Counted from the first letter of the stretch, positions 547-29,526 are shown. The stretch is DNA of 64,000 nt from Armatimonadota bacterium (GCA_023511535.1 JAIMBK010000010.1:633-64632), one strand, 5' to 3'. Notes: generated by a model from the letters alone, not told the origin. A program made the numbers and translations.

Positions 547-984
547 TTATCTTAACTTTGATACCTCATTACTGGCCACTCTTTGAATACGCTTGATCTC
601 TTCCTGCATGTTCCGAGGTAAAAGAACTAGCTTTAAAGACAACCCGGGAGCCAGGCGGCCCTCTAACCTTGCGGACATGATCTGGTAAAACTCTTGTGAG
701 GTAAAAACTAATAACCTTTTCGAGGCCGAAACGAGAGTTAAGTAATATAATTCTGCCTCGGCATTCTTTATCTTTCCTGAAGGAACCCGTCCCCTTGCTG
801 TCTTGCCACCAGCTGTTTTAATCGATGCAACAATTGTGCCATCGTCGGACACTGCATCGAATTCATGTTTTCCGCCGGTGATCAAAGTAAGTAAGCGTGG
901 CTTAAAGGCAATGCCGAACTCTCTCGCTAACTCTTTTCTCACGTATTCCTCGACATTTTTTCGCAGGTAGGTCGTGTTGGCCAT
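547..984 (-). CDS. Hypothetical 145-aa protein, possibly PD-(D/E)xK nuclease fold, at the distal end of the SIR2-HerA gene block
   Basis: Intact ORF with a GAAGGT SD-like sequence 4 nt before the ATG. The motif GGKHEFDAVSDDGTIVASIK resembles a D...(D/E/S)xK restriction-endonuclease-fold core. The fold is assigned by eye only. Confidence 0.45.
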   Translation of the reverse strand: MANTTYLRKNVEEYVRKELAREFGIAFKPRLLTLITGGKHEFDAVSDDGTIVASIKTAGGKTARGRVPSGKIKNAEAELYYLTLVSASKRLLVFTSQEFYQIMSARLEGRLAPGLSLKLVLLPRNMQEEIKRIQRVASNEVSKLR

Positions 985-1097: not shown

Positions 1098-3350
1098 TCA
1101 AAATGGTACTTCGTCATCAAAATCATCTTCTGAAACAACTTCTGTTTCTTCAAGCAATGTATCTTTTGATCCATCCTCCGGCTCGCCATCACTTTCATGT
1201 ATCCAGGTTTTTAGGAACTCCCCAATGTTGAACTGCTCTTTTCCCGGTTGCCATGCTTCCCACGGTCGAGGAGTATCACTCGTCGGAACGGGCTCCGGCT
1301 TTCGCACCTTCACTCTTGCTGCTACGTTAACAGCACTTCCCAAAAGAAGGCCTTCGCCGGGGGCTAAGATTGGTAATTGCTCGAGTAAATCACGTGAACC
1401 AATGGGTAGGATTTTCTTGAAATATTCTATATCCTCGGGATTTTGGATGCGATGCACCAGGAAATTTGCACACTGGGACAGCACCGTAGCACTGACATCC
1501 GACGGACGCTGACTCGCAATGATAAGAGAAAGCCCAAACTTTCGGCCTTCTTTGGCAATTCTCTCAAAGGTTTCCCGCGCTAATGTAAGACCGGGAGCTT
1601 CATCTTGGTTCCGTGGCTTAAGGTAGTTGTGAGCCTCTTCAAGTACGAGTACGTATGGTTGAACAGTTCTTTTAGCAGGCTCTGCCTGGGTCCTAACTTC
1701 CAGCAAAATCCGCCCAAAAACAGCGCAAAAGAAAGGAAGTACGTCGTGGGCAAGCATCGAGCAGTCCACTACGATAACTTGGTCATCATCCTGACCAGTC
1801 ATTGCCCATAGGATATCTTCTAACGAACCTCCGCCTTGTGTAAATACCGACCACCGCTTGTCCGCCAGTTGTCGATGGATACGCAATCTCAAAGTGGAAA
1901 TAAACTCCTGAATACGTGACTCTGCTCCGTGACGCGAAGCAGCGATATGAAAGTGAGCATCCCGTTCAAGTTCACGGGGATTAAATTGGATCGGGCTATC
2001 CGCAATAATCTGCTTGAGCCCACCTTTTGTAACTATATCCAAACGGAACTGCTGAAAAACAGGTTCTAATTTAGCAACAAATTGCACTACCTCCTCAGCC
2101 ACACCAGGGGGTAACCTCTGAAATTCGGCCCAGTTCTTTTCTTTACGAAGACTCTCATATTCTTCCTTGCTTCTAAGACCTCGTTCTCTAATCTTCTCAA
2201 TATCTTTTTCTATTCCATTAAACTGTGAGGGTAACCCAACTTTGTATTTCGCCAGTTCTCTCGCCAGTTCTCTTATTATATAAATGGTTTCTTGTAAGTG
2301 TGATATCAATTCGGCCGTATTATCTGATACTGCTGTACCGTCTGCCTCTGCTGCATATACAGAAAGGCTACCTAAGTAATTAAGGCATTTATCCACGATT
2401 CGGACAAGCCTTCTAAACGGCTTGACCGCATCCGGGTCTACCGAATCCTCACGAATCATTGTTATAACTCTCTCCAGGACAGGAACTTGACTAGCCTGTG
2501 AGGCTTCGAAAAAACTAATCAATTCAGTCAGGTTAAATATCCACAGGGGGAGTTCAAAAGGTTTTCCGTTAATGTACGACTTATTCAATTCTCGATCCGA
2601 TATCATTTCACTCTCCGTATTTTTTAAAGGAAAAGCACTTCCGTACTCGCCGTTGATGTCAAGAATAATAAACTTTGGTAATGGTTTAAATTCCCGGTTC
2701 TGCTGCTCAACAGCCGGTTGCTCCTGCTTATTCAGTAACGCTAGAGCCGATTGAATAATTGAAGCAACACTCCATGACTTCCCGGAACCGGTATTACCGA
2801 TAACACCAAAAGGCCGGGCCAATAGATCGTTAAAGGAAACGGTTACATCCTGTCTGTATATGGGCGATGGACCTACAACCAGGGCAATATCCCTATTATC
2901 CCGTGGCTGGTATTCCAAAATGGTTTTTAATTCTTCTTCCGTAGGTAAAAGTGCGGGCGTTTCGAGAACAGGGTATATAGACACTCCTGGCTCGAAAGGC
3001 ATGCTCTCTCTGAGTTGACCAAGAAGATTAATGGTTAAAATCCGCCGCGAACGGGCAAGTTGTAAGGCCATATCCCTTTCTGTATCTGCCTCTATGGTTT
3101 CATTTTCTGAAGCCCCTATCACAATACCGACCGCCGACTCACCCGGAGCAACGGGAAACAAAAGATATCCGCCTATTTGGGTGACAACTGATATACGATG
3201 GGGATACGACCGAATTTGGCTTCTGACATCAGGATCGAGTAACACTTTTACCCGATAGTTGAACACAGAAATTACTCGCCCAACCTCTCGTACATTTTTC
3301 ACCCCAAGATCAGGCACCATTCCCACCCCCTTATTGTAGCTTAGCTTCAA
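1098..3350 (-). CDS. herA: HerA-family (FtsK/HerA clade, DUF87-like) ATPase, partner of the upstream SIR2 protein
   Basis: Walker A FGVIGNTGSGKSWSV, Walker B YVLVLEEAHNYL and RKFGLSLIIASQRPSDV are typical of HerA ATPases. There is an N-terminal barrel-like GRVISVFNYRVKVLL. The ORF opens at TTG 3350, but the SD-supported ATG (GGGGG N5 ATG) is at 3320. The C-terminal tail is acidic. Confidence 0.85.
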   Translation of the reverse strand: MKLSYNKGVGMVPDLGVKNVREVGRVISVFNYRVKVLLDPDVRSQIRSYPHRISVVTQIGGYLLFPVAPGESAVGIVIGASENETIEADTERDMALQLARSRRILTINLLGQLRESMPFEPGVSIYPVLETPALLPTEEELKTILEYQPRDNRDIALVVGPSPIYRQDVTVSFNDLLARPFGVIGNTGSGKSWSVASIIQSALALLNKQEQPAVEQQNREFKPLPKFIILDINGEYGSAFPLKNTESEMISDRELNKSYINGKPFELPLWIFNLTELISFFEASQASQVPVLERVITMIREDSVDPDAVKPFRRLVRIVDKCLNYLGSLSVYAAEADGTAVSDNTAELISHLQETIYIIRELARELAKYKVGLPSQFNGIEKDIEKIRERGLRSKEEYESLRKEKNWAEFQRLPPGVAEEVVQFVAKLEPVFQQFRLDIVTKGGLKQIIADSPIQFNPRELERDAHFHIAASRHGAESRIQEFISTLRLRIHRQLADKRWSVFTQGGGSLEDILWAMTGQDDDQVIVVDCSMLAHDVLPFFCAVFGRILLEVRTQAEPAKRTVQPYVLVLEEAHNYLKPRNQDEAPGLTLARETFERIAKEGRKFGLSLIIASQRPSDVSATVLSQCANFLVHRIQNPEDIEYFKKILPIGSRDLLEQLPILAPGEGLLLGSAVNVAARVKVRKPEPVPTSDTPRPWEAWQPGKEQFNIGEFLKTWIHESDGEPEDGSKDTLLEETEVVSEDDFDDEVPF

Positions 3351-4906
3351 CCAATCTTATTATTTTGAGATTTCTGCAGGTCTCGAAGTGTTTGCGCTAT
3401 TGCTAATTCAGTTCTTAAAACTTCCAGATCAGGTAAGACATGCAAAGCAAAAAACTCAAATGTTCCCCAATGACCGCCCAGGCAATAAATCCGGCCGCAA
3501 GCATCAGCACGACAAAGTCTCCTGGCCCAAGAAGAGGGGTTTGGATCTATGATGACACACGTGAAGCTGGGATTTGTGAGGGCATCTTCGATTAACTGAT
3601 TTATATGATCATCCCATCCGCTGTACCCAATAATCATTAAAACCGTTTGGGGTTCTCTCAAAGCTTGCGAAAATGCCCGAAACATGTGCGAGAATGGCAT
3701 TGCAAGGGTTTCTCCATATTTGCCGGACGTGGGAAGGATAGCAAGTCCTTCACCTTTATCAAGAACCCTTTCCAGGTCAGGACTGTCTGAACTCTTACTC
3801 TCGCTAAGAAGGTCAGCTTCTCGAGGTAGAGGCCTATTGTCAAACACAATTCCATAGGGATTCCCTGCCGAGCCAAATTTGCTGCGCCGCCAGTTAATGC
3901 TTCCATGTAACTTATAAAGGTGCAGAACTTTATCGTAGCGGCGAACCCTTCCCTCGGTAACCTCTCCTGGATAATAAAGATCCAAATCATATGCAGCAGG
4001 ATTGAAACGCCTTGCAACAGTGCCTGTGAAGCCATCGCAATACATGACTCCCAGCCTATCCATTGCTTGTTCGATAAGCGTATCGTAATTTGTTGTAAAT
4101 ATTTTTGTTCTGCCCTGTTGGGGATCGCGCGCACTGAGCTTGGCAATTAAAGCTTCGTGAGGAGTGATATCCCATTCATGATCGCGAGCGTCGGGTGCGG
4201 AAAATCGGCTTGAAGGAAGATCTACGTTACAAACAACAGTGATTGCCCGCTCCAGATCAAGCAGTAACTCACTTAACCTAGTAATTCTAAGCTGGCGCCC
4301 CCGAATTCCCTTGAGAGGTATATCCAAGATCATCTGATCTATCGGCCACTGGCTTGCCTCTGATAAAGATCGCCAGGCCGTTAACTGGGAAAGAAATTTT
4401 TCAAAATGCCATCCAACTTTATCGGGAGCGCTCGCATGTGCAAGTATCGCTTTCAGTGTCAACTCTGAACTTCGCCCTTCGAGCAACTTATTTATCCGGC
4501 CAAAGAGTCCGGAACCGACAAACCCGGTCACATAAAAAGAAGCTCCTGCTCCGATCAAGATGCGGACATTCTGCATTTTTAACCATCGAGCAAAAAGTGC
4601 TAGCACTTCCTGGCGGATATTACTTTTTCGTTCATCTTCATTATCTTTTGCAAATCTTGACAGCCAATTTTCAGACCCCCGATAGAGAATGTTTGGGCTC
4701 CAAATACCTGGCGATATCTGTGTTATATCAGGCATTTCTGAAGATTGGAGATCAAACTGCAAGTTAAACCAGGGGTCATGACTTTTTCCTTCCAATTGCG
4801 GAAAAGGATCCTCTGGCGTTGCCTCTATTATTTTATCGTCCTTTTCAGCGTTCATTTGTCCTTCCTCGCTCTCTTGAGTAGCTCTTAACCCATCTTCAAT
4901 TCCCAA
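3347..4906 (-). CDS. SIR2-family protein (predicted NAD+-consuming effector of a SIR2-HerA system)
   Basis: Rossmann start RILIGAGASF, catalytic-type IFTTNYDTLIEQ (Asn) and LYKLHGSINW (His) are characteristic of the prokaryotic SIR2_2 family. It lies immediately upstream of herA. The ORF opens at TTG 4906. The better SD (GAGGAAGGA) precedes ATG 4855. Confidence 0.85.
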   Translation of the reverse strand: MGIEDGLRATQESEEGQMNAEKDDKIIEATPEDPFPQLEGKSHDPWFNLQFDLQSSEMPDITQISPGIWSPNILYRGSENWLSRFAKDNEDERKSNIRQEVLALFARWLKMQNVRILIGAGASFYVTGFVGSGLFGRINKLLEGRSSELTLKAILAHASAPDKVGWHFEKFLSQLTAWRSLSEASQWPIDQMILDIPLKGIRGRQLRITRLSELLLDLERAITVVCNVDLPSSRFSAPDARDHEWDITPHEALIAKLSARDPQQGRTKIFTTNYDTLIEQAMDRLGVMYCDGFTGTVARRFNPAAYDLDLYYPGEVTEGRVRRYDKVLHLYKLHGSINWRRSKFGSAGNPYGIVFDNRPLPREADLLSESKSSDSPDLERVLDKGEGLAILPTSGKYGETLAMPFSHMFRAFSQALREPQTVLMIIGYSGWDDHINQLIEDALTNPSFTCVIIDPNPSSWARRLCRADACGRIYCLGGHWGTFEFFALHVLPDLEVLRTELAIAQTLRDLQKSQNNKIG

Positions 4907-4907: not shown

Positions 4908-6212
4908 TTAAGCAGGTTTAACCCCGTTATACATCTCCCCGTAAAAAGTTCTAAATTCAGAGTAATTAATTGGCCGGTAATGAGCCAGTTCGTTACGTAT
5001 TTTTCTACCCGTTGTAACCAATGATAACCACCGGCGTTCAGGCTGCAAAGAATGGCAATACTTCAACAGGTATTCGAGGTGCCCCCATTGACAGGCCAGA
5101 GGATTATCCCTCACGGCCTGTTTTTCCTCTTCGGAGAGCGGTGGGAACCAGCGGATCGGCCAGTTATGTCCATAACGACGGGTAAGCAAATTGCATATCG
5201 TTAATCGTACATCGTCTAAAACAGGTAACAGTAGAGCCGCTTGGCCACGCCAGATTCGATGCCATAATTCTTCTTTCTTCCCGAGAAAATTTAAGGCAGC
5301 TGAATGTAGCTCGATACCATATTCCGGGGTAGCCATCAATAAACCATGTGACCAAAGGCGAAATAATTTTAATGGTGGGGCAACTGATGGCGCACCTGGC
5401 AATCCAAATCGTACCCCCCTCTCATTTAAATTCTGAAATTCAAATCCCTGCCCGACCAGGTTTTCCCACGTCCATCCGCATTGATAACTATAAGCTTGTA
5501 GACTTTGAACAATTTTTTCCAGGTCGCCATCCACTTCATTCCATAGATAAGCCATACAGGCTATGTCGTTACCAACTAAAGCAGGTAAAAGGAATTCCCG
5601 CCAAAGAGAAGAAGCTCCCCACTTTTCCTGTTCAAGTTCATTATTTATCCGACATAAAAGTTGCATTTCGAGAGCGGTAGGAAATCCCCACCACCAGCGC
5701 ACAGAGAGGTATAGGCTACTTGTTGGAACCTCACAGGGTAACATATTAGCCGGTATTACCAGGCAGATGGCAGGCGCCATTACTCCATAATCTGCTGTAT
5801 TTTGGCTATGCCAAGACCATTGCACAAGAAATTCAAGCCAAATTTTACGTTTAATCTCTGGCAAAATACAATAACCATCAAGCCAGATTAAGTCCGGCAG
5901 GCTGCTGCTGGCTACAATTAGGTTAGCTACTGTACGTGATATGTTGCCTTCTCCCCAATCAACCCCTAACGCCTCACCTAATGCAGCCGGCGGCGGACGA
6001 TCAGGAAAAAATTCGGGGAGCGGAAGTGTTACGGAACTAATGTCCCGCCGCCATAACTCTTCACGAAGAACCGTCATAACTTGGGCAGGTTCAATATTCA
6101 GCGGCAAAAGAAGTAATACACTTCGCCTATTGGCGAGATCATCAACAATACTGGCAAGAAAACGCCGGACGCTGGGTAACTGAAAAAAGCCGGAGTAGAG
6201 AAAAGAGCTCAT
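4908..6212 (-). CDS. Hypothetical 434-aa protein with a C-terminal HEPN-like domain (RNxxxH motif)
   Basis: The ATG overlaps the stop of the giant upstream gene (ATGA, 6209-6212). The C-terminal TGRKIRNELAHYRP (nt 4980-4997 encode RNELAH) fits the HEPN Rx4-6H signature with a polar residue after R. The N-terminal ~200 aa has strand/helix patterns (SVLLLLPLN, DLIWLDG, AICLVIPA) like a P-loop fold lacking Walker A. That last point is inference. Confidence 0.6.
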   Translation of the reverse strand: MSSFLYSGFFQLPSVRRFLASIVDDLANRRSVLLLLPLNIEPAQVMTVLREELWRRDISSVTLPLPEFFPDRPPPAALGEALGVDWGEGNISRTVANLIVASSSLPDLIWLDGYCILPEIKRKIWLEFLVQWSWHSQNTADYGVMAPAICLVIPANMLPCEVPTSSLYLSVRWWWGFPTALEMQLLCRINNELEQEKWGASSLWREFLLPALVGNDIACMAYLWNEVDGDLEKIVQSLQAYSYQCGWTWENLVGQGFEFQNLNERGVRFGLPGAPSVAPPLKLFRLWSHGLLMATPEYGIELHSAALNFLGKKEELWHRIWRGQAALLLPVLDDVRLTICNLLTRRYGHNWPIRWFPPLSEEEKQAVRDNPLACQWGHLEYLLKYCHSLQPERRWLSLVTTGRKIRNELAHYRPINYSEFRTFYGEMYNGVKPA

Positions 6213-9200
6213 ACTTTGAGCAACCTTTCTACTATTGGTTCTAAGATCAAGCCTTCTTCAGGATGGATTTCCGTCAGCCCCATCATTTGCAAATATTCCA
6301 AAACAGCAGCCCAAACTTTTTCCGAGGCAGGTTGTCCAGATGATAACAATTCGCATATATGCTCCGGGGTAGCTAATTCCAAAGGTATTGACTTTTCCTG
6401 GATAATAAATCTTGCCAACTTTTCAATGTGTTCATTTATCTCTAAACCTAATTGCGACCAAAAGTTTTGTCTAAGCGGGGAACCCATTTCTTTCAGTTCG
6501 TTATCAATTTGGCAACAAAATGGACGGGGATCATCGGCCTCTCCACACCGGATAAATAACTCGTCCAACAGGTATGGCCAACCGCCCGTTGTCTGGAAGA
6601 CTTGCTCACATACATCTTTTGAGTCCATTTTGTTGCGTTGAACAATCCTTTGTTTAATGGCGGCCAGATTCCATCGCCGCGGCCAAAGCACTACGTCAAC
6701 CTGATTCTCCAGCTCCTTCCGATCAGTTGCGGGTAAAGTAAGCCATTCCCATGTTGCTTTCGGCGGAAAGACAAACAGAACCCTTAACCACTGTCCTTTT
6801 TTCTTGCCTTTATATTTCTGGCATATCCTTACAGCGCTGTTTATTAATGGCTCTATCTCCTTCGCGCTGCCTTTCATTTCTCGGTAAACAACCAGACGCC
6901 CATACCCGCTGTGCATTTTCAAATAATCTTCCAGCCAGATTCTCATTTTTCCAGCATCGTTAACCTCCGGAGGAATGCTGGCTAAATCTCCCCAAACACC
7001 GGCGGTTACTTCCGTTGGCTCGCCAGTCACTAAAGACCTGAAAGCTTCAACAAAACGGTTTAACCCCAAAGCTCCCGAAGCAAATAGCAACCCCACGCCA
7101 AACTGCCGCGTGTTCAGGCTTCGTTCCTGCCCAAACGAAAGGGGATTGTAGTACCGGCCGTTGCAATCAAGAGGAGCATGATAGTTATTGGGATCATCGT
7201 TCTGATCATCCGGCGAAGCATAGGAAAGCTCCAGCAGACGTTCCTCAATGTGGTCTTTTGTTCCGATTATCCGAACGAGATTCGGACTCCGCAAGTGATA
7301 GTAACCTTCGTTGCTACGCCATAACACTCCCAAACCGCACATTTCGTCCAATAGACCGCGAAACTCGTCGGAGCGGATCTGGCCAAATCCCTGTTCCCAC
7401 CACTCACTGGCCATGCGCAGTATATCCGTTGCTCGATAAGACTGAGCGAACACATCCCGCTTATCCAAATGGTCATAAATTATTGTCCAGGCAATAGCCT
7501 GATAACGTTTATCGAGGGCCAGCGTCCAATCGAAACGCTCTTTAAATTGTTCCCGGATTTCCTGCATGCGATAAACGGCTTCAATATCACTTCGATCGAT
7601 TACGTAAGGATACTGCGGCTTTTCTCTCCTGGCTTTATTGTGAAGTCGTATCAGGAGTTTCTGACAAAAAAGCTGGATTAGACCAGGGTGGTAGTTGGTG
7701 TAAGACAAAATACGAAGAATAAGCGCATCATCCTTAAAACGGTAACCAAGCGACGATAATGGCTTACGAATCAGTTCTTGGGCTGCACCTGGCTCCAGCG
7801 GTCCAACCCGCATCGGAGCGCCAAACTGGGCCAGGGGCTGATTTGCCAAACCCTGAAAACGTTGTACATTGTGAAGACCTGCAAAAACTACTTTGAACCT
7901 GCGCTGTGTATTTTGCATTAAAATCCGCAACTGGTCGACGATACAGAAATTATCCCTGGCATCCGCATCCAGAAAGTTATCCGCTTCATCAAACAGCACC
8001 AGGACACGATAACGGGGGTTCTTTTCAAGGACATTACGCAAATGAGTTATAATTTCATCCGGTAAATCGGTATTTATTTTTGGCGGAAGCAGCCCGAGCA
8101 TCTTGAAAACGTCCCGGAGTTTTTTCCAAATTACACTGGTGGGCTGGCCAGTTTTTGGGTCGCCTACAATCTTAATGTCTTCTACATAGGCATACTGATC
8201 ATTCTGCGGTTGGTGGAACTCTCGCTGTACATAGCGCAAAAGAGCAGACTTGCCTAATTGACGACCGCCGTATACCACACAACTCTCCTCCGGGCGCTGT
8301 AACTTACGGACCATATCTTCCCGGCCAAAAAACATCTCCTGGGGTACGTCGCCGGCCTGGAAAGGTGTATAAGGATTTACAGCAGTGAAAGGAAGGGAAC
8401 ATTTAAAGAAAGACGAGAGACGCGCCGTGCGCTCGGCAGCTAGAAAAACCAGCAATATCTCATCTAAAACCGCCATGGTTAAGCCCCGTTCGATTGATAA
8501 TTGCTTCATGACATGACGACGTTCCAGACTCATCCGTCCCAGGTAAAAAACCAACACATTGCGGTTATCCAGTTTCAAATCGCGTAACCAAGCGCTCATT
8601 GTATCCACGCTGGGTCGTTCCCACAGACAAATCACATCATATACTCCCTGCTGTTGAGAACCAAATTGCGGTACTGGCGCAAGCCCGCCTGCTGACATAG
8701 GAACACGAGACATATAAAAATAGTAATCGCTCGCATATAAATTATTAGCCGGTACTTTTAATCCAGGTTCTATGTTAAAACCTAGATAATGTAATATATA
8801 CGTAATTAAAGTAACTTTTTCCTTATTAGTCATTCTTCCTTGTTTTAACCTGCGCCATGCCTCAATGGCAGACAGCGCCTCGTCACGCCGCGGGCGCGGC
8901 AATTTGCCAAAGTTTAAACCGGCCCAACGCCGTTCATTGCGGATTGCATCACCAACAGCGACAACACCGTGATCCCGCCCCAGTTCTTCTTCGATTCTTT
9001 TCAAGGACTCTTTAAATTCATGAAAGACATCCCGTTCATCAACGCGGGGAACAAACCAGTTATCCTCAATTTCCTCTCCAGTGTCTAAGGCCCTCGCCAG
9101 GCGGGACAGAATTTCCTCTACTACACGCGTATCCCCCTGATCTAAAGCATTTTGAACGAAACTTTGCACCTGTGCTTTGCGGTTTTGATCAATTTTCGCT

Positions 9201-12169
9201 TCGTTCAAGCGTTCCTGTATACTTTGCCATTGGTTAGTTAACAAGATCAAACGCTCGCTCCGCGCTGTATCTAGCCTGGTCAGAATTTGGTCTAAAACAG
9301 CATAACAAGGTGTGAAATTTTGGACAGCCTTAACATCTATTGCCTGAATCTGGGCACTATATTCTGCCCGTTCTTCACCAATGATTCCATCAACTACCGC
9401 CTGCTCAATTGCTTCTTCTGTATGTCGGATTTTATCCTCGAGGGCAGCCCTGGAACCTTCGAGTTCTTCCTGATATTTTTTGCACAAACCGTTATATTCT
9501 TGCTCTGTACCCAATGCTCGCGCCAACTGGTCCGCAAACCGAAAATCCTTTTTCTCCAACCAACCCATAAAGGCTTCCTGCCAGGAGGGATTTTGTGCAT
9601 AGGCATCACGCAAGACCGTAGCAATAGGTGCCAACGCTAAAGGTTCTCCGTTATCGTTCAGAGTAAGTTCCGAAAAAAGGAATAACCTTCGCCGGAAAGC
9701 CTTCATTAAAGTATCCTCTTCGCTGATAAGCCAGTCCCAACGGTTCTCCGGCAAAGAAGATTTCAGGTACTCCGCCGGTAATTGTAAAATCCGGCATAAC
9801 TGCCCGGCGGCCCGAAGGAGGCAATACCCACCAGCCAGCAGGGAAATAGGGGCAGGTTTGCTGGTTAGGTTACGCCAGCTTTCCTCTTCTTCGGCAAGAG
9901 CTTTTTGAACACCTTGCCGCAATTCGGTAATGCGTTCCGCCAGCCAGTTTCTGCCCAGCCGTTCAATATCCTTCTCTTGCTCAACTAGTTCACACCAGCG
10001 GATGGCAAGAAAACATCCATCGCGGACATAACGAATAATCTGTTCCCGAGGATCACCTGTAATCAAATTATACTTTTTCCCCATTAGTTTGCGGTCAACG
10101 GCATTGATTTGGTCGGTGACAAAATCTCTCTGAAACCAATTATCAATTTCTTGCCGCACCAGTTGTACCCGATCACGACGGTCTTCCGCGACCAGCAATA
10201 AAATTGCTCCTAATTGACCTTTACTATCAATCAAATCCTGCCATACAGCGGTGGCCCGGTTCAATTTTGTTCTCCGCCCGCGCGCACCCTCCAACCAATC
10301 CTTAACCTTCAGGGATGCCTCTCGAATGGTCTGTTCACGCAGTTCAATACCGGAAACACTTAAGAGATCGGTTCTTTGAATCGGCACCCCAAGTTGCGCA
10401 AAAGTTTTTATTGTTTCAATTAAGCTATGCAAAAAAGGATGATTCCCCGGTACTTTTAGCCAACCCATTAATCCGCTTTTTGGCGCAATCAGAGTTGGGC
10501 ATAACGCTGCCGCCAAACCCAACAATTCCTGTACCTCGTCGTTTTCAGGCTGATGGTTGCGAGCAATTTCAAGCAGATCCTGAACAAAAAGATCGGAGTC
10601 CAGGTTTAACCATCTTGCCCCCTGGAGCGCCTGCAGGAGCCAATATTGTAATGGCGAAGAAGCGTACTTTTCCTCTAATGACCTTGCCAACCAGTAGGCG
10701 CCGGCGAGATCGTCTTCGATGATCAAAGACCAGAAAAAGTCATTCCAATTATCCAGGCCATCATGGGAAAATAAAGTGACCGCAATATCGTGGGCCGATG
10801 CCCGTTTTTCCTTTACCAATCTTAATGAAATTTTTTCGGGAGGCTGGGACTCAGGAACGACTGCAGTACGTTGATTTTCCGGTTGAGCCACTGCAACTTC
10901 CAGAGAAGCAAAAGGCGATTGATTAGTTCCGTTTTTCTCTGTAGAAGGTGAAATTAAGGAAATTTCCTCATGCTCCAAAAGGGAAAAAGGTGGTGGTGAA
11001 GAATCTAGCTTTGGCAACTGCTGTTCCAAATTGTTCCCCTTTTCAACGTGATCATCTTCTTCTGCTTTTCCTTTTTCCTGACATTGTTGTTCACCTTTCT
11101 CTTCCCGATCGGCTTTCCCAGGTATGCAGCTGGCAGGCAAAAATACTTCCGTCAATTCCTGATAGATCTGCTGGATTTTTTCTTCCAGTTCCTCCTGCTT
11201 TTTGCGGCGTTCGCGCTCTTCATGAATTGTAGCACCAGTTTGACGAAGTTCCTGGTAGAAACCAAAAAGTTCAAACAACCTTTCAATGCGGTCACAAGCT
11301 TCGGTTGCCTGTTGATATGAACAATTACGTACATCCCACTGGTCCGTATTTGTTATGCCAAAAAAGATTAATTCTTTTGCCCATTCCTTTTGCAATTTAC
11401 GCAAATCATGCTGTAAAAGCTCCAGGACAGAATCCTTTTCCCGGCTTTTGCTCTCCGCCAGTTCTTTTAACTGGTTAATAAAATCATTAACAGACTCCCA
11501 TTCGGGCGCTTCCGCCGGCAAAGCTTTTAGTTCTTCCAACCATTTGTGCCATAGTAGACCGACACCCAAACCTTTTTCCTCTTTCTCCTCAACGGATCCC
11601 TCTTCCTTTACCTCATCTCCTTCTTCTGTTATTTCATCTCCTTCTTCCATGGCCGATAAAATTGCTTCCTCAATTAAAGAAGCGATGAGAAGACGAACAT
11701 CGTTTTGGCAGTAACCCCGTTCAGCAACTAAAAAGGCAACCGCATCTTCAACCTGTTGTAATAGATATCCGCAATTCCCTGGATCTTCAAGTGAGTTTGC
11801 CAAACACTCAACTATCTTTTTTGGTCCTATGCACTGCTGGTTAAGATACTCCAGAATTTCGACCTTCAGTTCGCCCTTTGTTTCTTCCCATACTTTAAGG
11901 ATTGCTTTGAGCAATTGATCAGAATAATATGTAACAGCTTTTATTTCCTGGCCTAAAAGACGTACAGGCGCCTTTAATGGGTTTCGAAACCCGTTGATCT
12001 GGATATGGCCCCTAATGGTTTGCTCCAGTTGTCGGCGTGCCGGGAAGGATGCTTCCTTCCAGTGGCCAAGGGCCTGCCTGATGATTTCTTCCCGGTAACT
12101 TTCATCTTTTTTCACAATGGTTAGAATGTTATCTAAAAATGACGCTAAATCTTTTATTTGTTCTGACAC
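6209..12169 (-). CDS. Giant (1986 aa) P-loop NTPase, AAA+/STAND-like (Arch_ATPase-like core), with long uncharacterised N- and C-terminal regions
   Basis: Uninterrupted 5.96-kb ORF. GTG start sits 9 nt after AAAGGAGGG. FFGREDMVRKL...VVYGGRQLGKSALLRYV is Walker A (nt 8246-8269, aa ~1301). RVLVLFDEADNFL is Walker B and KVVFAGLHNVQRF is sensor-1-like. No other motif is recognisable by eye in ~1290 aa upstream or ~600 aa downstream of the core. Confidence 0.8.
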   Translation of the reverse strand: MSEQIKDLASFLDNILTIVKKDESYREEIIRQALGHWKEASFPARRQLEQTIRGHIQINGFRNPLKAPVRLLGQEIKAVTYYSDQLLKAILKVWEETKGELKVEILEYLNQQCIGPKKIVECLANSLEDPGNCGYLLQQVEDAVAFLVAERGYCQNDVRLLIASLIEEAILSAMEEGDEITEEGDEVKEEGSVEEKEEKGLGVGLLWHKWLEELKALPAEAPEWESVNDFINQLKELAESKSREKDSVLELLQHDLRKLQKEWAKELIFFGITNTDQWDVRNCSYQQATEACDRIERLFELFGFYQELRQTGATIHEERERRKKQEELEEKIQQIYQELTEVFLPASCIPGKADREEKGEQQCQEKGKAEEDDHVEKGNNLEQQLPKLDSSPPPFSLLEHEEISLISPSTEKNGTNQSPFASLEVAVAQPENQRTAVVPESQPPEKISLRLVKEKRASAHDIAVTLFSHDGLDNWNDFFWSLIIEDDLAGAYWLARSLEEKYASSPLQYWLLQALQGARWLNLDSDLFVQDLLEIARNHQPENDEVQELLGLAAALCPTLIAPKSGLMGWLKVPGNHPFLHSLIETIKTFAQLGVPIQRTDLLSVSGIELREQTIREASLKVKDWLEGARGRRTKLNRATAVWQDLIDSKGQLGAILLLVAEDRRDRVQLVRQEIDNWFQRDFVTDQINAVDRKLMGKKYNLITGDPREQIIRYVRDGCFLAIRWCELVEQEKDIERLGRNWLAERITELRQGVQKALAEEEESWRNLTSKPAPISLLAGGYCLLRAAGQLCRILQLPAEYLKSSLPENRWDWLISEEDTLMKAFRRRLFLFSELTLNDNGEPLALAPIATVLRDAYAQNPSWQEAFMGWLEKKDFRFADQLARALGTEQEYNGLCKKYQEELEGSRAALEDKIRHTEEAIEQAVVDGIIGEERAEYSAQIQAIDVKAVQNFTPCYAVLDQILTRLDTARSERLILLTNQWQSIQERLNEAKIDQNRKAQVQSFVQNALDQGDTRVVEEILSRLARALDTGEEIEDNWFVPRVDERDVFHEFKESLKRIEEELGRDHGVVAVGDAIRNERRWAGLNFGKLPRPRRDEALSAIEAWRRLKQGRMTNKEKVTLITYILHYLGFNIEPGLKVPANNLYASDYYFYMSRVPMSAGGLAPVPQFGSQQQGVYDVICLWERPSVDTMSAWLRDLKLDNRNVLVFYLGRMSLERRHVMKQLSIERGLTMAVLDEILLVFLAAERTARLSSFFKCSLPFTAVNPYTPFQAGDVPQEMFFGREDMVRKLQRPEESCVVYGGRQLGKSALLRYVQREFHQPQNDQYAYVEDIKIVGDPKTGQPTSVIWKKLRDVFKMLGLLPPKINTDLPDEIITHLRNVLEKNPRYRVLVLFDEADNFLDADARDNFCIVDQLRILMQNTQRRFKVVFAGLHNVQRFQGLANQPLAQFGAPMRVGPLEPGAAQELIRKPLSSLGYRFKDDALILRILSYTNYHPGLIQLFCQKLLIRLHNKARREKPQYPYVIDRSDIEAVYRMQEIREQFKERFDWTLALDKRYQAIAWTIIYDHLDKRDVFAQSYRATDILRMASEWWEQGFGQIRSDEFRGLLDEMCGLGVLWRSNEGYYHLRSPNLVRIIGTKDHIEERLLELSYASPDDQNDDPNNYHAPLDCNGRYYNPLSFGQERSLNTRQFGVGLLFASGALGLNRFVEAFRSLVTGEPTEVTAGVWGDLASIPPEVNDAGKMRIWLEDYLKMHSGYGRLVVYREMKGSAKEIEPLINSAVRICQKYKGKKKGQWLRVLFVFPPKATWEWLTLPATDRKELENQVDVVLWPRRWNLAAIKQRIVQRNKMDSKDVCEQVFQTTGGWPYLLDELFIRCGEADDPRPFCCQIDNELKEMGSPLRQNFWSQLGLEINEHIEKLARFIIQEKSIPLELATPEHICELLSSGQPASEKVWAAVLEYLQMMGLTEIHPEEGLILEPIVERLLKV

Positions 12170-12700
12170 CTTTCCTTACCCTCCTTTAAATATAAACCGG
12201 TAATAAATAACTGATTATAAGGTATATAACCGACTTCAATTTGTCACGGTTTAAAATTTTTTTAACGATGTTTCTCCTGGTCGATTTGTCACTGGACTTA
12301 TTTCAATTTGTTAGGCAAACTCTTTAACAGCAAAAATCGTCTTAAGCAATCTACCGCCGAGGTGACCTATACCATGCCCGCTCTTAAACCTGATTTCGAT
12401 GTAATGCTACAATTTTCCTGCAATGAAATATTATTTTTTTCTATACTTCCAAAAATATTTGGTCTTCAGGCGAGACGTAAAAAAGGTTTCAGTAATCGGA
12501 AAGACCGGGCATTTGGTCAATTGCATCGTGGCGATCCGGTGGTCCTTAAATGATAGTGGACGACTTTTTGCTGAAATCTAATTTAAATGCACAAGCCCCT
12601 TAATGCATTGGCTACCTTTTCTAAAAAAATGATTAGTGATAGAGCAACCAAATTGCAAGTATGAGTAAATATTTCTACAAAGATTTTACAATAAAATCTT

Positions 12701-14749
12701 CTAAACAATAATCGCCTTAACAAAAGCGTCCGTTGCATCAGCGTAGAATTCGATATTGATCTTCGTAGCCATTTCATCAGGAAGGTCAAATAGTTGCCTT
12801 CGCGAAGATATAGGCATTAAAAGCGTCGTTGCTCCTTTCTCGAGGGCCAGCTCGGCCACGGCAACCGGGTTAGGGATCATCTCGATTGAACCGCCAAGGT
12901 TAAGGGCACCAACAATGATTAATCCACCTTTGACGCTGCGCTCGATTAAAGCGCCGCAAAGGGCGATGAGAACCGGCAAACCGAGTCCCCGACCGGAACG
13001 ATCGACGTCCATCGCGCGTAATTGAATGGAAAACTCGTGTCCACGGGGATCGCGGTCCCCAACCAGCTCTTTGGCCCTTACGTAAAGATTCTGTTCTCCG
13101 TAACGGACGCTCTCCCGAAAAGCCGGCGGAACGGGTGAGTTAAGAATCTTCACCCCACTCCCGGGACCAACCGTGGCCTCTATACGATATAGAGCCGGGG
13201 AAGCGTCCTGCCCGCCGGGGCTGATCGCCCATACCTGCCCCGGAGGCAAGGGATCACTGTCAATGGTTTCGTCGCTGTGGAGTTCCGGAGTGGAAACAAA
13301 CTGTTCCACCCCATCTACGCCCATGGAGAAGCTGAAATGAGTATTGCGAAATTCCGTTTTCAGGCAGCGCTTCTGCTGCTCTTTCACCCGGCGGCGCGCT
13401 TCCAGAGCGATCCGGACGATCTTCTCCAGCTCTTCATCTGGAATGGGCATCTCCGGATCAGGAAAAATCAGCTTGACCAGGCCGCTCACGATTTTATTTA
13501 CCGCTTCAATATCCCGTCCGCTGAGCGCTCCTCCCCAGTTCACCCGGCCCTGCAGAACCGATATCCGACTGCCGTCCCGCAGCTTATGCCAGCACTCAGA
13601 GAGGAAATCGCTAACTAATCCAAAATGGTTCGTAAAGTGAATATTTGGATTAAGTTTCGGAAATTCCCACCCGGGAACGTAGGCATGAATCCGGTCCATA
13701 AAGGCCGTATCGTCGCGCATCTCAGGAGGAAGCGGGCTCAGCAAATGGCCGATGCGTTGCTGCTGCTGAACATCGACGTCAAAATTTCCCAGCATGACAA
13801 TGCCGCCGAAGGCGCGAATGCTCTCCTTGCCCCGGGAAAATTCGCCCGCTGCCATGTAACCTTTCATGATGTTGACGCCGTCTTTCTGGTCGAAGGATAT
13901 GCCGGAGATTTCGTCGAAGCAGACCACGTCATAAAGACAGACAAGCCCCCGCTGCCCGGTGGCGTTATTTACAAACATCTTGGCCACCGTGGCCTTCCCG
14001 CCAGAAATCAGGTGTGAGTAGGGAGAGATTTGTTGAAACAAATGACTTTTCCCGGTTCCGCGGGGACCCAGTTCCACAAGATTACAGTTTTGCTCCACAA
14101 ACGGCACCATTCTTAACAAGGCCACAAGTTGCGCCCGTTCCGAAAGGGAGTCCGGTTCCAAACCTACGGAACGCAGCAGAAAGCGTTTCCATTCGTCCGT
14201 TGTGAACTGACTCCTTCCCCGCTGCAAAACTGTTAGAACGTCCACCCTGGAAAGTTGAATGGGTCTTAGGTTTTCGATTTTGAAAGGACGGCCATTTCTT
14301 TCCAGAGCGATCGCAGCGTCATAGCCCAGGGTTATTTCGGCATAAAATCCATCGGTCAGCATTCGCTCATTCTCATGAACCAGATTGTCATCAATGCGGA
14401 CATCTTTTAGCCCCAGGCTCGGCAACTCCGCAATAAAGCAGTCATTGCGAGCGTCCAGGCGGGCTTTGACAATGTCGATTATCTTTACCGACCCGCTATC
14501 TCTTGCGCGCGCTTTAAAGAGTTCTTCTTCGCCGGTCCGGACCGTACGGTCTTTCAACTGTCTTTCGACAATCCGCAGGCCCTCCTCAATCTCTACTTCG
14601 TCAACAGTTGCGCAATAGCGCCCGAGTAGAAACTCTACAACATATGTAGGCACTGGATACTGACGGCTGTATTTGCGCACCAGATCTTTGCGCACTATAT
14701 AGCCATCAAACGCGGAAGCTGCGATCCGGTCGAGAGAATCAAGCTCCAT
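12701..14749 (-). CDS. brxL: BREX system Lon protease-like protein BrxL
   Basis: N-terminus FDGYIVRKDLVRKYSRQYPVPTYVVEFLLGRYCA, P-loop ELGPRGTGKSHLFQQ and a C-terminal Lon-protease-like region. It is the last gene of the canonical type 1 BREX order. Confidence 0.9.
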   Translation of the reverse strand: MELDSLDRIAASAFDGYIVRKDLVRKYSRQYPVPTYVVEFLLGRYCATVDEVEIEEGLRIVERQLKDRTVRTGEEELFKARARDSGSVKIIDIVKARLDARNDCFIAELPSLGLKDVRIDDNLVHENERMLTDGFYAEITLGYDAAIALERNGRPFKIENLRPIQLSRVDVLTVLQRGRSQFTTDEWKRFLLRSVGLEPDSLSERAQLVALLRMVPFVEQNCNLVELGPRGTGKSHLFQQISPYSHLISGGKATVAKMFVNNATGQRGLVCLYDVVCFDEISGISFDQKDGVNIMKGYMAAGEFSRGKESIRAFGGIVMLGNFDVDVQQQQRIGHLLSPLPPEMRDDTAFMDRIHAYVPGWEFPKLNPNIHFTNHFGLVSDFLSECWHKLRDGSRISVLQGRVNWGGALSGRDIEAVNKIVSGLVKLIFPDPEMPIPDEELEKIVRIALEARRRVKEQQKRCLKTEFRNTHFSFSMGVDGVEQFVSTPELHSDETIDSDPLPPGQVWAISPGGQDASPALYRIEATVGPGSGVKILNSPVPPAFRESVRYGEQNLYVRAKELVGDRDPRGHEFSIQLRAMDVDRSGRGLGLPVLIALCGALIERSVKGGLIIVGALNLGGSIEMIPNPVAVAELALEKGATTLLMPISSRRQLFDLPDEMATKINIEFYADATDAFVKAIIV

Positions 14750-14751: not shown

Positions 14752-17100
14752 TTAATCCTCACCTCCTACGGTGGTTGTCTGCTTTGCAATTACTCGTCCT
14801 GCAGGATCAAGCAGAACAAGGCTGACGACAGTGCCTTCCAGGGAATCATCAGCAACGAGAAGGCCCGCGCGCCCCCTGGAATCAACCTGCCTGGGCGTGG
14901 TAATGCTGGAATTTGCCTCGTTGGGTTTTGTCCGCAGATCTGCTGTAACTTCATTACTGCCGGCATCAACTGTAACCCGGCAACGCATCCCAAGCCACTG
15001 GATTTCCTTGATGCTGACCGGCAGGGGAGCCAAAATGCTATCCGAACTAAAGGTCAAGTCAGGAATGAGGCATTCCTGAAGGCTCACGCCACCATGAGCG
15101 TATTCATTACCGTTTATAAAACAAGATACCCCGGGCGCAAATGCGAAGTGCTGATAGGTATTCCAATACCATCCGGCAGTGGGAACGTCGACCCGGGCAC
15201 CCGGGCTGATGGCCGCGCATCTCATCCAGCGGCTCTCAGTGAGGTATTTGGGCAGTTTCATGGCCGGCAGTCCACCCGGAACTAAAAGCCATCCGTGATC
15301 AGTGATTACCCGGACCTGTTTCCAGCCGGCATCGAGCAAAGCTTGGATTCGATCCAAAACGAGCTCGAGCTGTTCATCGATGCGGGGCGCAAGCCTGGTT
15401 TGCAAGGCATGGCCCAGTCTGTCAAATTCGCCAAGTTCCGTCCACCCCCGGGCACTCGGTTCACCCGGAGTACCGGTCTCAGAAGAATTAAATACCTGAT
15501 AACCGGCTTTGCTTAACAACTTCCGAAAACGGTCGGTGGTCAGAGGGAGGTTCCCCTCCCTGATCATCGGCAGAAAATCTTCCCCCGGAAGGTCGCCCGA
15601 AAGCTTTTCGGCGATTGGGGAGACAGCAGGTTTTGCTGTTGCCGTCACCGTGGGCAATCCTGCCCAGCGCCAGCCCGTGGTTACCCGCAGCTGCCTTTCT
15701 TCCGCCAGGACAACCAGCCTCCGGGCGATATCGAATCTCAGCCCGTCTACAAAGAGCAAACATTGTCCAGGATTGGCCATAATGGCGGTTTGATTTTTAT
15801 CCGGCAGGGGATTGCCGGCAACCAGATCTTGAAAACGCCGGGCCGTATCCTCCAGCCAGGGCAGATATATGCTGCGCAGAACAGCTTTGATTGCCCTGGC
15901 ATCCTCAGCTGATTTCACGCTGCTGATTGCTTTCAAAACGGCCTCATCGGCAAGATATCCGCCCTCCGTGTAAAGGTCAGCCATTGCTTTTGGCGAGTCG
16001 CCTCCCAGACCCTGGGCGGTCTTGCGGGCCAGGGTTACCAGGTGCTGGAGAGCTTCGGCCAAAGGGCTCTGTCCCAGCCTGGCCCAGACCCAATCCCTCC
16101 GCGTACCGTGGATCTTCTCCAGTTCCTCGATTTTCTTTCTGGCCTCACCAGAAGATAAGCTCTCCAATTCTAAAAGACTCTGCCTTAAGGAATTCTCTTC
16201 TGTTTCGTTTTCATCCGGCCAGGGCTCTTTGTCAAAGATCAATCTTGCCGGCTTGGCTCGCCTTAAAAGATTGGGAATACCGGGGTAAAGGGCCGGTGAT
16301 TCTGTGTAACGTTTCCATAAAGTCTGCCAAACTTCAGTTTCCCGCATGCCCAATTTTTCAGCAGCAACAAGCTCTCCTTCTCCTTCCGGATCAAATCCGT
16401 ATTCGTCCCGGCAACGGGAACAAAATGCCGCCCACCTCTCGTAACCCCACTTCTCCCGAGCATGGACCGGGTCACTCAGCCATAATAATAATTCCCGCGG
16501 CGTATCGGCGATCATCAACCTGTCGAAGTCCTCGGCTTCCAAACGCTTACCCCGCAGCCGCGAAATGGGGGTCACCGCCAGTTGGGACAGCGCTCTGAGC
16601 ATAGCCTGACGGGTTTCTCTATCTTTAGCAACATCCAGGCCCAGGCCGTCTTCAGAGACAAGAAACGCCTCCACTGTCCAGTCTTTGCCGTTGCGCTGCG
16701 TCCAGACCGTCCCCCGGTATTGTAATTCCACCAACGGCTTCAGGCTATCTGGACATTCCTCACCCGCCCGAAGCAACTGCCGGTTTACGTTCGGCATGTA
16801 GATGATTGGAATGGTTTTCTCCGGCAGTTCAACGTCAGGCAGCAGGCGCTCAATAACGCAACGCAGCCAGATTGCCGGCCCCGTTCTTTCTTTCGGATTA
16901 TATTCTCCCAGGGTTAAAAGCTCCGGCATGAGCAGGCGTAATTGGGACACCAGTGGCTCCCATTGACCATCGGCATCAGTCCAAAGAATGGCCGCGGGAG
17001 GAACGGCAGAGCCTGGATCATACCGGCCGGCCCGAAAGAGCGACTCACGTACGGCCTCCAGAAGGGTATTTGCCGTTGTTTTACCTGTCTTACCAGACAT
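14752..17100 (-). CDS. pglZ: BREX-1 alkaline-phosphatase-family protein PglZ
   Basis: LLFVDGLRFDIARRL PglZ-domain core and a size of ~780 aa. It lies between pglX and brxL with 2-6 nt gaps. Confidence 0.9.
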   Translation of the reverse strand: MSGKTGKTTANTLLEAVRESLFRAGRYDPGSAVPPAAILWTDADGQWEPLVSQLRLLMPELLTLGEYNPKERTGPAIWLRCVIERLLPDVELPEKTIPIIYMPNVNRQLLRAGEECPDSLKPLVELQYRGTVWTQRNGKDWTVEAFLVSEDGLGLDVAKDRETRQAMLRALSQLAVTPISRLRGKRLEAEDFDRLMIADTPRELLLWLSDPVHAREKWGYERWAAFCSRCRDEYGFDPEGEGELVAAEKLGMRETEVWQTLWKRYTESPALYPGIPNLLRRAKPARLIFDKEPWPDENETEENSLRQSLLELESLSSGEARKKIEELEKIHGTRRDWVWARLGQSPLAEALQHLVTLARKTAQGLGGDSPKAMADLYTEGGYLADEAVLKAISSVKSAEDARAIKAVLRSIYLPWLEDTARRFQDLVAGNPLPDKNQTAIMANPGQCLLFVDGLRFDIARRLVVLAEERQLRVTTGWRWAGLPTVTATAKPAVSPIAEKLSGDLPGEDFLPMIREGNLPLTTDRFRKLLSKAGYQVFNSSETGTPGEPSARGWTELGEFDRLGHALQTRLAPRIDEQLELVLDRIQALLDAGWKQVRVITDHGWLLVPGGLPAMKLPKYLTESRWMRCAAISPGARVDVPTAGWYWNTYQHFAFAPGVSCFINGNEYAHGGVSLQECLIPDLTFSSDSILAPLPVSIKEIQWLGMRCRVTVDAGSNEVTADLRTKPNEANSSITTPRQVDSRGRAGLLVADDSLEGTVVSLVLLDPAGRVIAKQTTTVGGED

Positions 17101-28692: not shown

Positions 28693-28768
28693 TGGAGGCG
28701 GCAGGGAGATTCGAACTCCCGCATAACGGTTTTGCAGACCGTCCCCTTAGCCACTTGGGTATGCCGCC
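28693..28768 (-). tRNA. tRNA-Cys (GCA)
   Basis: Reverse complement: GGCGGCA...ACGGT CTGCAAA ACCGT...GGGAG TTCGAAT CTCCC TGCCGCC T CCA. The cloverleaf was folded by hand, the anticodon loop is CTGCAAA, and CCA is encoded. Confidence 0.9.
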
Positions 28769-28969: not shown

Positions 28970-29014
28970 AAAGAATCAACAAGGCAAATCAAATCGTATT
29001 GGGAGGTGTTTAAA

Positions 29015-29515: not shown

Positions 29516-29526
29516 CGGCAAAAAAA

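Follow-up and report, generated by a model that had tools for sequence, protein, structure and literature searches.

In a 64,000-nucleotide stretch of DNA from an Armatimonadota bacterium (GCA_023511535.1, JAIMBK010000010.1:633-64632; the whole stretch is hereafter called the window), the gene of a giant ATPase is followed on the minus strand by the gene of a much smaller partner protein. We propose, with a probability of roughly 0.6, that these two genes form a self-contained and horizontally mobile conflict module, most likely an anti-phage one of the abortive-infection type. The giant contains a STAND-type nucleoside triphosphatase (NTPase) core, and the partner carries a predicted HEPN ribonuclease (RNase) domain. 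The strict pairing and the coupling of the genes, the conservation of the catalytic motifs, the fold predictions and the setting in an island were all established computationally. The cassette contains the following parts.

12179..12187, minus strand: Shine-Dalgarno-like AAAGGAGGG, 9 nt 5' of the giant's GTG start, inside the AT-rich 531-nt gap that separates the cassette from the BREX gene brxL
6209..12169, minus strand: giant STAND-type ATPase gene, whose TGA stop overlaps the partner's ATG (ATGA)
11570..12169, minus strand: giant residues 1-200 (N1 region), family-specific, without a Pfam match, missing from relatives of about 1,700-1,760 residues; holds a 21-nt duplication
11120..11569, minus strand: giant residues 201-350 (N2 region), present in most relatives, with conserved W224, F230 and W278
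10823..11119, minus strand: giant residues 351-449, acidic low-complexity linker by composition; conservation 0.15-0.19, and BLAST coverage falls here
8903..10822, minus strand: giant residues 450-1089, conserved family-specific region from the profile search, without a Pfam match; candidate sensor or scaffold
8360..8902, minus strand: giant residues 1090-1270, pre-ATPase alpha/beta domain from the AlphaFold2 model and conservation, without a Pfam match
7220..8359, minus strand: giant residues 1271-1650, predicted active STAND/ORC-like NTPase module with core, helical lid and winged helix (AlphaFold2, Foldseek, consensus)
8246..8269, minus strand: Walker A GGRQLGKS, giant residues 1301-1308 (sequence and alignment)
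7979..7990, minus strand: Walker B D-E-A-D, giant residues 1394-1397 (sequence and alignment)
6212..7219, minus strand: giant residues 1651-1986, second, degenerate NTPase-like module, modelled by AlphaFold2 as beta-alpha-beta followed by helices and a terminal winged-helix hairpin
4908..6212, minus strand: partner gene, 434 amino acids, starting inside the giant's stop codon (ATGA, 4-nt overlap) and translationally coupled
5313..6212, minus strand: partner residues 1-300, predicted pseudo-AAA+ (inactive STAND/ORC-like) domain, lid and winged helix (AlphaFold2, Foldseek)
4911..5306, minus strand: partner residues 303-434, predicted HEPN (Swt1-like) helical domain, by consensus profile match
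4980..4997, minus strand: predicted HEPN catalytic motif R406-N-E-L-A-H411 (Rx4H), from the alignment

An earlier reading of the same DNA (the original prediction) had described a 1986-residue protein at 6209-12169 as a single P-loop module between unrecognisable flanks. The open reading frame (ORF) was found to be uninterrupted, and the quoted motifs lie where they had been placed or within a few bases: GGRQLGKS exactly, and VLVLFDEADNF (residues 1389-1399) at 7973-8005 as against about 7981-8010. VVFAGLHN corresponds to residues 1427-1434, FGVGLLFASGALGLNRF to residues 1690-1706 and LRVLFVFPP to residues 1795-1803. Promoter and terminator scans around the cassette gave no signal above shuffled expectation. 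A TTGAAG...TATAAT pair 5' of the giant's start has a spacer of 14 nt and was therefore not called a promoter.

Searches of Pfam, PADLOC, NCBIfam and PDB sequences, together with the family consensus, agreed on one recognisable P-loop module. In Pfam, AAA_22 alone passed its cut-off (residues 1294-1436, 28.5 bits versus 27), with ATPase_2 and AAA_16 below threshold. The recurrent Pfam families across 16 giant homologues were of the P-loop type alone (AAA_22 in 15 of the 16, TniB in 5). No PADLOC v2 model matched the giant, nothing in NCBIfam came near its curated cut-off (best slr1306_fam, 19 bits versus 490, over the same P-loop stretch), and no match among PDB sequences was significant (best E 0.59). 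No Pfam match was obtained with family consensus sequences for the N-terminal, pre-ATPase or C-terminal part, and profile searches assigned no known housekeeping domain to the flanks.

The conservation of the giant was counted in 130 full-length relatives. The Walker A residues G1301, G1302, R1303, G1306 and K1307 and the Walker B residues D1394, E1395 and D1397 were each present in 130 of 130, and R1437 in 127. Judged from these counts, the first NTPase site is under strong constraint. The consensus of the ATPase region from the same relatives scored 46.2 bits with AAA_22 and 43.3 bits with nSTAND1 (versus 27.1), both above the curated cut-offs. The term STAND-type is therefore justified for the family; by itself, the window sequence passes the AAA_22 cut-off and no other.

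Residues 1090-1986 of the giant were modelled with AlphaFold2 from a 16-sequence alignment (mean predicted local distance difference test score, pLDDT, 82.8; predicted template modelling score, pTM, 0.65). In this predicted structure, lid helices and a beta-hairpin winged helix lie C-terminal to the core, and a GxP-like motif T-N-Y-H-P-G-L-I-Q is conserved (P1495 in 111 and Q1499 in 129 of the 130 relatives). The top Foldseek matches in the PDB were the tandem-AAA+ proteins ClpA, ClpC, NSF, p97 and Hsp104 (E about 1e-7 over about 710 columns), with query/target template modelling scores (TM-scores) of 0.18/0.25, a root-mean-square deviation of about 23 Å and 11-13% identity, and with no Walker A in the second module of the giant. 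On this model, the likeness to type II AAA+ unfoldases is one of layout only. The next matches were Aeropyrum pernix ORC2 (1w5t, target TM-score 0.55), Avs3 (8dgc) and TnsC. The STAND-like core named in the original prediction is thus borne out by the consensus scores, the ORC2 and Avs3 fold matches and the invariant Walker motifs.

The second module of the giant reads [GA]-S-x-A-x-G at the P-loop position, and the lysine was found in none of the 130 relatives. Because the AlphaFold2 model, the tandem-AAA+ matches and the P-loop position without lysine agree, a second, degenerate nucleotide-binding fold is supported here, as had been suggested earlier. The additional suggestion that this C-terminal segment resembles the 434-residue protein failed: the best BLASTP match had E 0.12 and joined non-corresponding regions, and hhalign gave a probability of 0.2%. 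The two share a predicted fold class only, AAA+-like without Walker A. The giant also departs from the classic tripartite STAND layout (N-terminal effector, central NTPase, C-terminal repeat sensor), its C-terminus being an inactive module and a winged helix without repeats.

The sensor-sized region without recognisable domains indeed lies N-terminal to the NTPase. Residues 20-200 are kept in about half of the relatives and residues 200-350 in most, and the N2 region shows no motif of catalytic appearance. The charged low-complexity linker of about 130 residues described earlier is residues 317-446. Residues 450-1090 are moderately conserved, mostly at hydrophobic or aromatic positions. No effector signature was found in the N-terminal 1,090 or so residues by library scans, consensus sequences included. 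The N-terminal segments of 116 of 129 relatives fall in one homology cluster, so this region is not a slot for interchangeable effectors, and we rejected the idea of swappable effector domains there.

The acidic seven-residue tandem duplication EEGDEIT/EEGDEVK is also present, at residues 175-188 (nt 11606-11647). At the DNA level it is a 21-nt tandem duplication (17 of 21 positions identical, about 2.4 copies including a partial third unit). A second short in-frame tandem duplication (9 nt, 2.1 copies) was observed at 11572-11590 in the same acidic N-terminal stretch. Both look like the result of replication slippage in a low-complexity, non-conserved segment.

The pre-ATPase domain is more sharply conserved at a few positions. 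D1236 was present in 130 of 130 relatives, E1237 in 118, G1170 in 129 and S/T1171 in 128, and these residues sit in an hhhLDE strand end and a PxPQFGS loop. They could form a catalytic or ligand-binding site. A PD-(D/E)xK nuclease was considered for this domain and rejected: the strand order is compatible, but G1170-S1171 and D1236-E1237 lie off the canonical positions.

The partner was modelled by AlphaFold2 from a 120-sequence alignment with high confidence (pLDDT 93.8, pTM 0.90). Its Foldseek matches were ORC3, RuvB, Cdc6, Avs4, CED-4 and RFC. In the alignment column counts, the P-loop position reads P-x-G-[VI]-[DE]-P, so the N-terminal part of the partner, which includes a lid and a winged helix, is predicted to be NTPase-dead.

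For the C-terminal domain of the partner, HEPN_Swt1 (PF18731) was the sole Pfam family matched by members of the partner family. The consensus of 40 such domains scored 29.2 bits (cut-off 27.5, E 1.2e-6) over profile positions 16-114 of 115, and it also matched DUF4145 weakly. DUF4145 overlaps a HEPN family (Anantharaman et al. 2013, PMC3710099). The Rx4H motif, which fits the Rx4-6H signature of HEPN RNases, was almost invariant. In 119 aligned sequences of 120 homologues, R was present in 119, N in 114, A in 116, H in 118 and Y412 in 113, and R406 and H411 were both invariant in a set of 106 partners. Consistently, the UniRef name of the orthologue from Calderihabitans is "Swt1-like HEPN domain-containing protein". 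We therefore regard the C-terminal domain as probably HEPN. PDB sequence searches with the partner, its profile and the profile of the HEPN domain returned nothing meaningful, and the partner matched neither PADLOC v2 nor NCBIfam. The original prediction that no effector is recognisable thus stands for the giant itself and not for the unit, whose partner carries the predicted HEPN RNase domain.

The two genes were adjacent and co-oriented in 35 of 36 genomic contexts, with stop and start usually overlapping: in the window, in all six loci reached from homologues of the giant, in all three reached from distant homologues of the partner, and in 25 of the 26 loci taken from GTDB species representatives. 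In the paired loci the partner has about 400-450 residues and lies directly 3' of the giant on the same strand. The exception (locus L033, 3826-4587), in a Spirochaetia metagenome-assembled genome (MAG), is a truncated partner without a giant. In a Chloroflexia MAG (L034, 4192-10390) both genes are broken into several ORFs. These two loci are decayed copies. Two pieces of the giant gene are seen in each of three further loci (L013, L020, L023), perhaps because of frameshifts in the assembly.

The size of the family was measured by an exhaustive HMMER search of 1.84 billion cluster representatives with a profile of giant residues 450-1290, from which the P-loop was excluded. The matches numbered 2,847 at E<=1e-3, of which 2,488 reached E<=1e-10 and 1,481 reached E<=1e-30, which places the family, by its non-ATPase part, at about 2,500 clusters at 50% identity. 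Nearly all of the top 150 matches have 1,700-2,100 residues with the match at the same relative position, and 126 of 159 long proteins carry 650-700 residues after the matched region. A word-indexed search of a collection of 5.8 billion proteins with the giant found only 16 and 13 proteins (single sequence and profile). The rarity that this suggested was rejected as an artefact of the word-index candidate filter, given the more than 2,400 proteins found by HMMER. Rarity estimates from word-indexed searches are thus unreliable for very long proteins of about 2,000 residues. The hosts belong to at least eight phyla with a patchy spread, and include Armatimonadota, Latescibacterota, Chloroflexota, Acidobacteriota, Myxococcota, Desulfobacterota, Bacillota, Spirochaetota and Entotheonella. 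A literature search by accession numbers found nothing.

Defence genes surround the cassette in many other genomes. In Calderihabitans maritimus (L007) it lies beside DISARM DrmB, a methyltransferase and a HerA-like gene; elsewhere it lies near a type IIG-like enzyme and Hachiman HamA (L008), near HsdR and Fic (L009), and near a Cas gene and toxin-antitoxin pairs (L010). A type I restriction-modification system is directly 3' of it in L017, and L023 has the same gene sizes. Neighbours in further GTDB loci include DruE, nSTAND1 ATPases (three matches among all neighbours) and a HerA/mad8-like gene. The PADLOC counts of mad8, mad3 and AriA among the neighbours equal the number of ABC-transporter ATPase neighbours and were for that reason taken as cross-hits, by totals and not per protein; one genuine HerA/mad8-like gene is in L015.

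In nine Latescibacterota loci (L001, L004, L005, L011, L020, L022, L027-L029) the cassette interrupts one conserved operon for a sugar ABC transporter (binding protein, ATPase, permease), and in related genomes it occupies two different intergenic positions there. In L004, L011 and L020 a separate ORF of about 400 residues occurs in the same operon, confirmed as an nSTAND1 ATPase in L004. This operon appears to be an internal hot spot for defence-type genes. The homologues lie in defence islands in many contexts, and their patchy distribution and decayed copies argue against a core function. Distribution and context together are what would be expected of an accessory cassette of defence type that moves horizontally, with many of the contexts phylogenetically linked.

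We infer that the giant and the partner interact physically, oligomerise, act as an RNase on some trigger and produce a defence phenotype. STAND/NLR proteins oligomerise on trigger and nucleotide binding and activate their effectors by proximity, and HEPN RNases need two HEPN domains for an active site. The giant would be an ATP-dependent sensor and scaffold that binds a trigger through its N-terminal 1,100 or so residues, its pre-ATPase domain, or both. The partner would be the effector, and its pseudo-AAA+ domain and winged helix would dock on the NTPase modules of the giant. Nucleotide-dependent oligomerisation would join NTPase modules of the active and the inactive kind, as heteromeric ORC or NLR complexes do, and the assembly would recruit or rearrange partners through contacts between dead and active modules. 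Two HEPN domains would then be juxtaposed to complete a composite Rx4H active site, and the cleavage of RNA would lead to growth arrest. These individual steps are less certain than the overall reading of the pair as a two-gene STAND-HEPN unit. A bolder version, which we offer as tentative and rather doubtful, is that the pair builds an ORC-like hetero-oligomer of three kinds of STAND/AAA+ module (active and dead in the giant, dead in the partner), in which an infection signal is read by the N-terminus of about 1,100 residues instead of a C-terminal repeat array, and closure of the ring allows the HEPN RNase encoded in trans to act. The pair would then stand for a distinct architectural class of NLR-like immunity in bacteria, with thousands of members that lack annotation in little-studied phyla, and in this genome it may also be wired to SIR2-HerA.

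Several results weigh against the proposal of an anti-phage STAND-HEPN module. The N-terminal 1,090 or so residues and the pre-ATPase domain match no library, so that calling them a sensor is an assumption. In individual partners HEPN_Swt1 reached at most 22 bits versus the cut-off of 27.5 (4 of 106 and 4 of 9 members), and the window partner had no HEPN match in Pfam even at E<=10. The fold search with the partner returned no solved HEPN structure in its top 50 matches, because AAA+ matches dominate them. Neither protein matches any PADLOC v2 model, and the phage and plasmid collections held no homologue of either partner type. Many of the contexts are related Latescibacterota at one locus and are not independent, and the immediate neighbours at that locus are transporter genes and not defence genes.

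The cassette of the window lies between two known defence systems, all on the minus strand: a type 1 bacteriophage exclusion (BREX) locus, then the giant-partner pair, then a SIR2-HerA pair. The features around it are listed below.

28693-30775: four tRNA genes (Cys, Gly, Phe, Asp), at the edge of a lower-GC mosaic segment
12701-25394, minus strand: complete-looking BREX locus, with very strong PADLOC matches for BrxL, PglZ, PglX and BrxC
23975-24535 and 24522-25394, minus strand: ORFs of 186 and 290 amino acids, by position probably BrxB and BrxA
20529-23975, minus strand: BrxC (PADLOC)
17107-20517, minus strand: PglX (PADLOC)
14752-17100, minus strand: PglZ (PADLOC)
12701-14749, minus strand: BrxL (PADLOC)
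1098-4858, minus strand: SIR2-HerA (Nezha-type) pair, SIR2 by PDLC04085 (E 1e-82) and HerA by PDLC04106 (E 9e-153) in PADLOC

The GC content is 44-58% from base 1 to about 28,600, with 44-47% in the cassette and 52-58% in the BREX genes, and 50-62% from 30 to 64 kb. The segment with the three defence systems looks like a tRNA-flanked defence island running off the left end of the window. Homologues of the window SIR2 or HerA were absent within 10 kb in the 26 GTDB loci, and no SIR2 was annotated in the nine other contexts. SIR2-HerA is a separate known system, since it accompanies the cassette only in the window, and both it and BREX are independent neighbours in the same island. The original prediction of an antiviral-STAND-type sensor or scaffold therefore keeps its STAND core and its defence-island setting, and the unit is a two-gene pair, not a four-gene set with SIR2 and HerA.

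The four-gene arrangement was weighed as an alternative in its own right, in which the giant and the partner would be an added sensor or regulator layer of a NAD+-depleting SIR2-HerA effector complex encoded in one operon. All four genes are co-oriented and tightly packed (the giant and the partner overlap by 4 nt, SIR2 and HerA overlap as well), no terminator-like site above chance lies between them, HerA-like genes also adjoin the cassette in L007 and L015, and ORC/Cdc6-type ATPases are recurrently paired with HerA/FtsK in conflict systems (PMC10853773). However, the absence of SIR2 and HerA from the other loci speaks against such a composite, and the two match PADLOC models of a known stand-alone two-gene system; the HerA-like genes in L007 and L015 are upstream, of a different, mad8-like type and without SIR2, and the cassette already has an effector candidate of its own. 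We consider this composite quite improbable. That the pair is instead an auxiliary "backup RNase" of the adjacent BREX locus is hardly credible. The pair does lie directly 3' of brxL in the same orientation, and a 2026 survey reports HEPN RNases recruited beside BREX loci as backup effectors (PMC12839542). But the 531-nt gap with its own ribosome-binding site and the different GC content set the cassette apart, BREX genes were found in none of the nine other annotated contexts, and BREX was absent among the top families of 109 neighbour proteins in the GTDB loci.

Two other explanations concern the function and not the neighbours. The same STAND-controlled HEPN RNase biochemistry might serve a conflict or stress module that is not anti-phage, such as a regulated suicide or dormancy switch, kin discrimination among social or filamentous bacteria, or island-stabilising addiction. 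The hosts are enriched for Myxococcota, Chloroflexota, Entotheonella and Latescibacterota, comparable STAND/iSTAND systems occur mainly in prokaryotes with multicellular habits (PMC8195603), toxin-antitoxin pairs often adjoin the cassette, and the lack of homologues in phage and plasmid collections fits as well. Against this, the neighbours, among them restriction-modification, BREX, DISARM, Hachiman, Druantia and CRISPR genes, speak specifically for a defence against invading DNA, and we consider a purely non-anti-phage role unlikely, although the sequence alone does not separate it from the anti-phage one. A highly improbable explanation is that the giant is a mobile-element or housekeeping ATPase with TniB/ORC-like DNA handling (transposition targeting, replication or segregation) and the partner an RNA-processing cofactor. 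The AAA_22 and TniB matches in Pfam, the ORC, Cdc6 and TnsC fold matches and the placement at different sites within one operon are what such an ATPase would lead one to expect. Yet no transposase or integrase was consistently adjacent in the examined contexts, the plasmid and phage collections lack the cassette, the patchy spread and decayed copies argue against a core function, the best family-level match is the STAND family nSTAND1, and an intact HEPN toxin motif is atypical of housekeeping partners.

The closest known layout to the giant-partner pair is a two-gene operon, "??+STAND+wHTH -> inactive nSTAND2+wHTH+TPRs+HEPN" (wHTH, winged helix-turn-helix), predicted by Kaur, Iyer, Burroughs and Aravind (eLife 2021, PMC8195603, section 15, Fig. 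6C and source data). Its authors propose a hetero-multimer of active and inactive modules (PMC8195603). For comparison we fetched eight metagenomic nSTAND2 loci (L037-L044). Gene 1 encodes 1,935-1,980 residues in the six loci where it is complete and is cut or split in the other two, and gene 2 encodes 609-623 residues in all eight and overlaps or abuts gene 1. As in the window, the two genes are co-directional and overlapping. Gene 1 has a long unassigned N-terminus, an active STAND module and a winged helix, and gene 2 an NTPase-dead STAND module, a winged helix and a C-terminal HEPN domain. With such sizes and coupling the architecture is strikingly parallel, and both the nSTAND2 system and the window pair are known as computational predictions.

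Sequence similarity to the nSTAND2 loci was limited to the core. Between the giants and nSTAND2 gene 1, hhalign aligned the NTPase core alone (probability 93.7%, E 2e-7, their 1582-1734 versus 1254-1389 here). The published nSTAND2 alignment gave E 0.32 with the partner family, collinear and not significant, and the partners of the eight loci gave E 0.088 over 21 columns. The N-terminal regions of the giants showed no significant similarity to nSTAND2, and HMMER with the profiles of the window family found nothing in the eight loci. Homology of the cassette to the published system was therefore not supported beyond the NTPase core. The window giant also differs in that its active module is preceded by an alpha/beta domain and followed in cis by an inactive NTPase-like one, and the window partner has about 430 residues without the TPR segment. 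The hosts are different too, mainly Latescibacterota, Chloroflexota, Acidobacteriota, Myxococcota and Armatimonadota for the window family and mainly Proteobacteria for nSTAND2. Judged by these comparisons, the window pair is a variant of a layout already predicted computationally. With its core near residues 1582-1734, nSTAND2 gene 1 has an unassigned N-terminus even longer than that of the window giant.

Other systems share part of the layout. Like Avs (AVAST) and NLR-like STAND proteins, the giant is a very large polypeptide of defence islands with a central STAND-type NTPase, a helical lid and a winged helix; Avs3 (giant) and Avs4 (partner) are among the fold matches, and in both a trigger would be expected to induce oligomerisation and thereby activate a nuclease. 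The PADLOC Avs models matched neither the window giant nor three distant giants. In contrast to Avs, the large unassigned region is N-terminal and not a C-terminal TPR-like sensor, no effector is fused to the N-terminus, the effector is on a separate protein with its own dead NTPase domain, and a second inactive NTPase module is present in cis. In restriction-like defence loci, the HEPN-DUF499/BrxC-like ATPases (Ava_2192 type; "Hma"/type-1 BREX-related) likewise join an ORC/STAND-like AAA+ module to a HEPN domain from the Swt1/Abi2 group (PMC3710099, PMC12839542). There the HEPN domain is N-terminal to an active ATPase in one protein, accompanied by a methyltransferase and a helicase-nuclease, whereas the window partner carries it on the C-terminal side of an ATPase-like domain that is inactive, and has no conserved companion but the giant. 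ORC1-5/Cdc6 and RFC resemble the cassette in mixing active and inactive AAA+ modules, and the best structural matches of the partner were ORC3, Cdc6, RuvB and RFC. ORC3 is itself a degenerate subunit. These proteins have no sequence-level relationship to the cassette, whose context is accessory islands and not replication.

Should the pair prove to be an immune system, the NLR-like proteins of bacteria would gain a large family, in which none of the approximately 2,500 clusters is annotated beyond "ATP-binding protein". Its layout would invert the textbook STAND arrangement, with the sensor-sized region N-terminal and the effector supplied in trans through a dead NTPase adaptor. The pair would also allow a test of the idea, dating from 2021 and purely computational, that a HEPN RNase is controlled by the joint assembly of active and inactive STAND modules. 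Experiments could start from a cultured host, Pyxidicoccus sp. 3LFB2 (L036). For annotation, a 434-residue "hypothetical protein" beside such a giant can be called a predicted HEPN effector, and an adjacent SIR2-HerA pair should be called separately.

Some minor observations concern the neighbours. HerA/mad8-like ATPase genes lie directly 5' of the cassette in L007 (6453-9754, with an unassigned 386-residue gene) and in an Anaerolineales MAG (L015, 3-2432). A HerA-family neighbour thus occurs in 3 of 36 contexts, the window included; this may be a coincidence of defence islands or reflect some loose association. In the window, a 145-residue ORF just 3' of HerA (547-984, minus strand) has no match in Pfam, PADLOC or NCBIfam. 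The listed SIR2 ORF starts with TTG at 4906, and the ATG at 4858 carries the ribosome-binding site GAGGAAGG. On the sequence, the ATG at 4858 is the more likely start, which leaves about 49 nt between the partner stop and SIR2.

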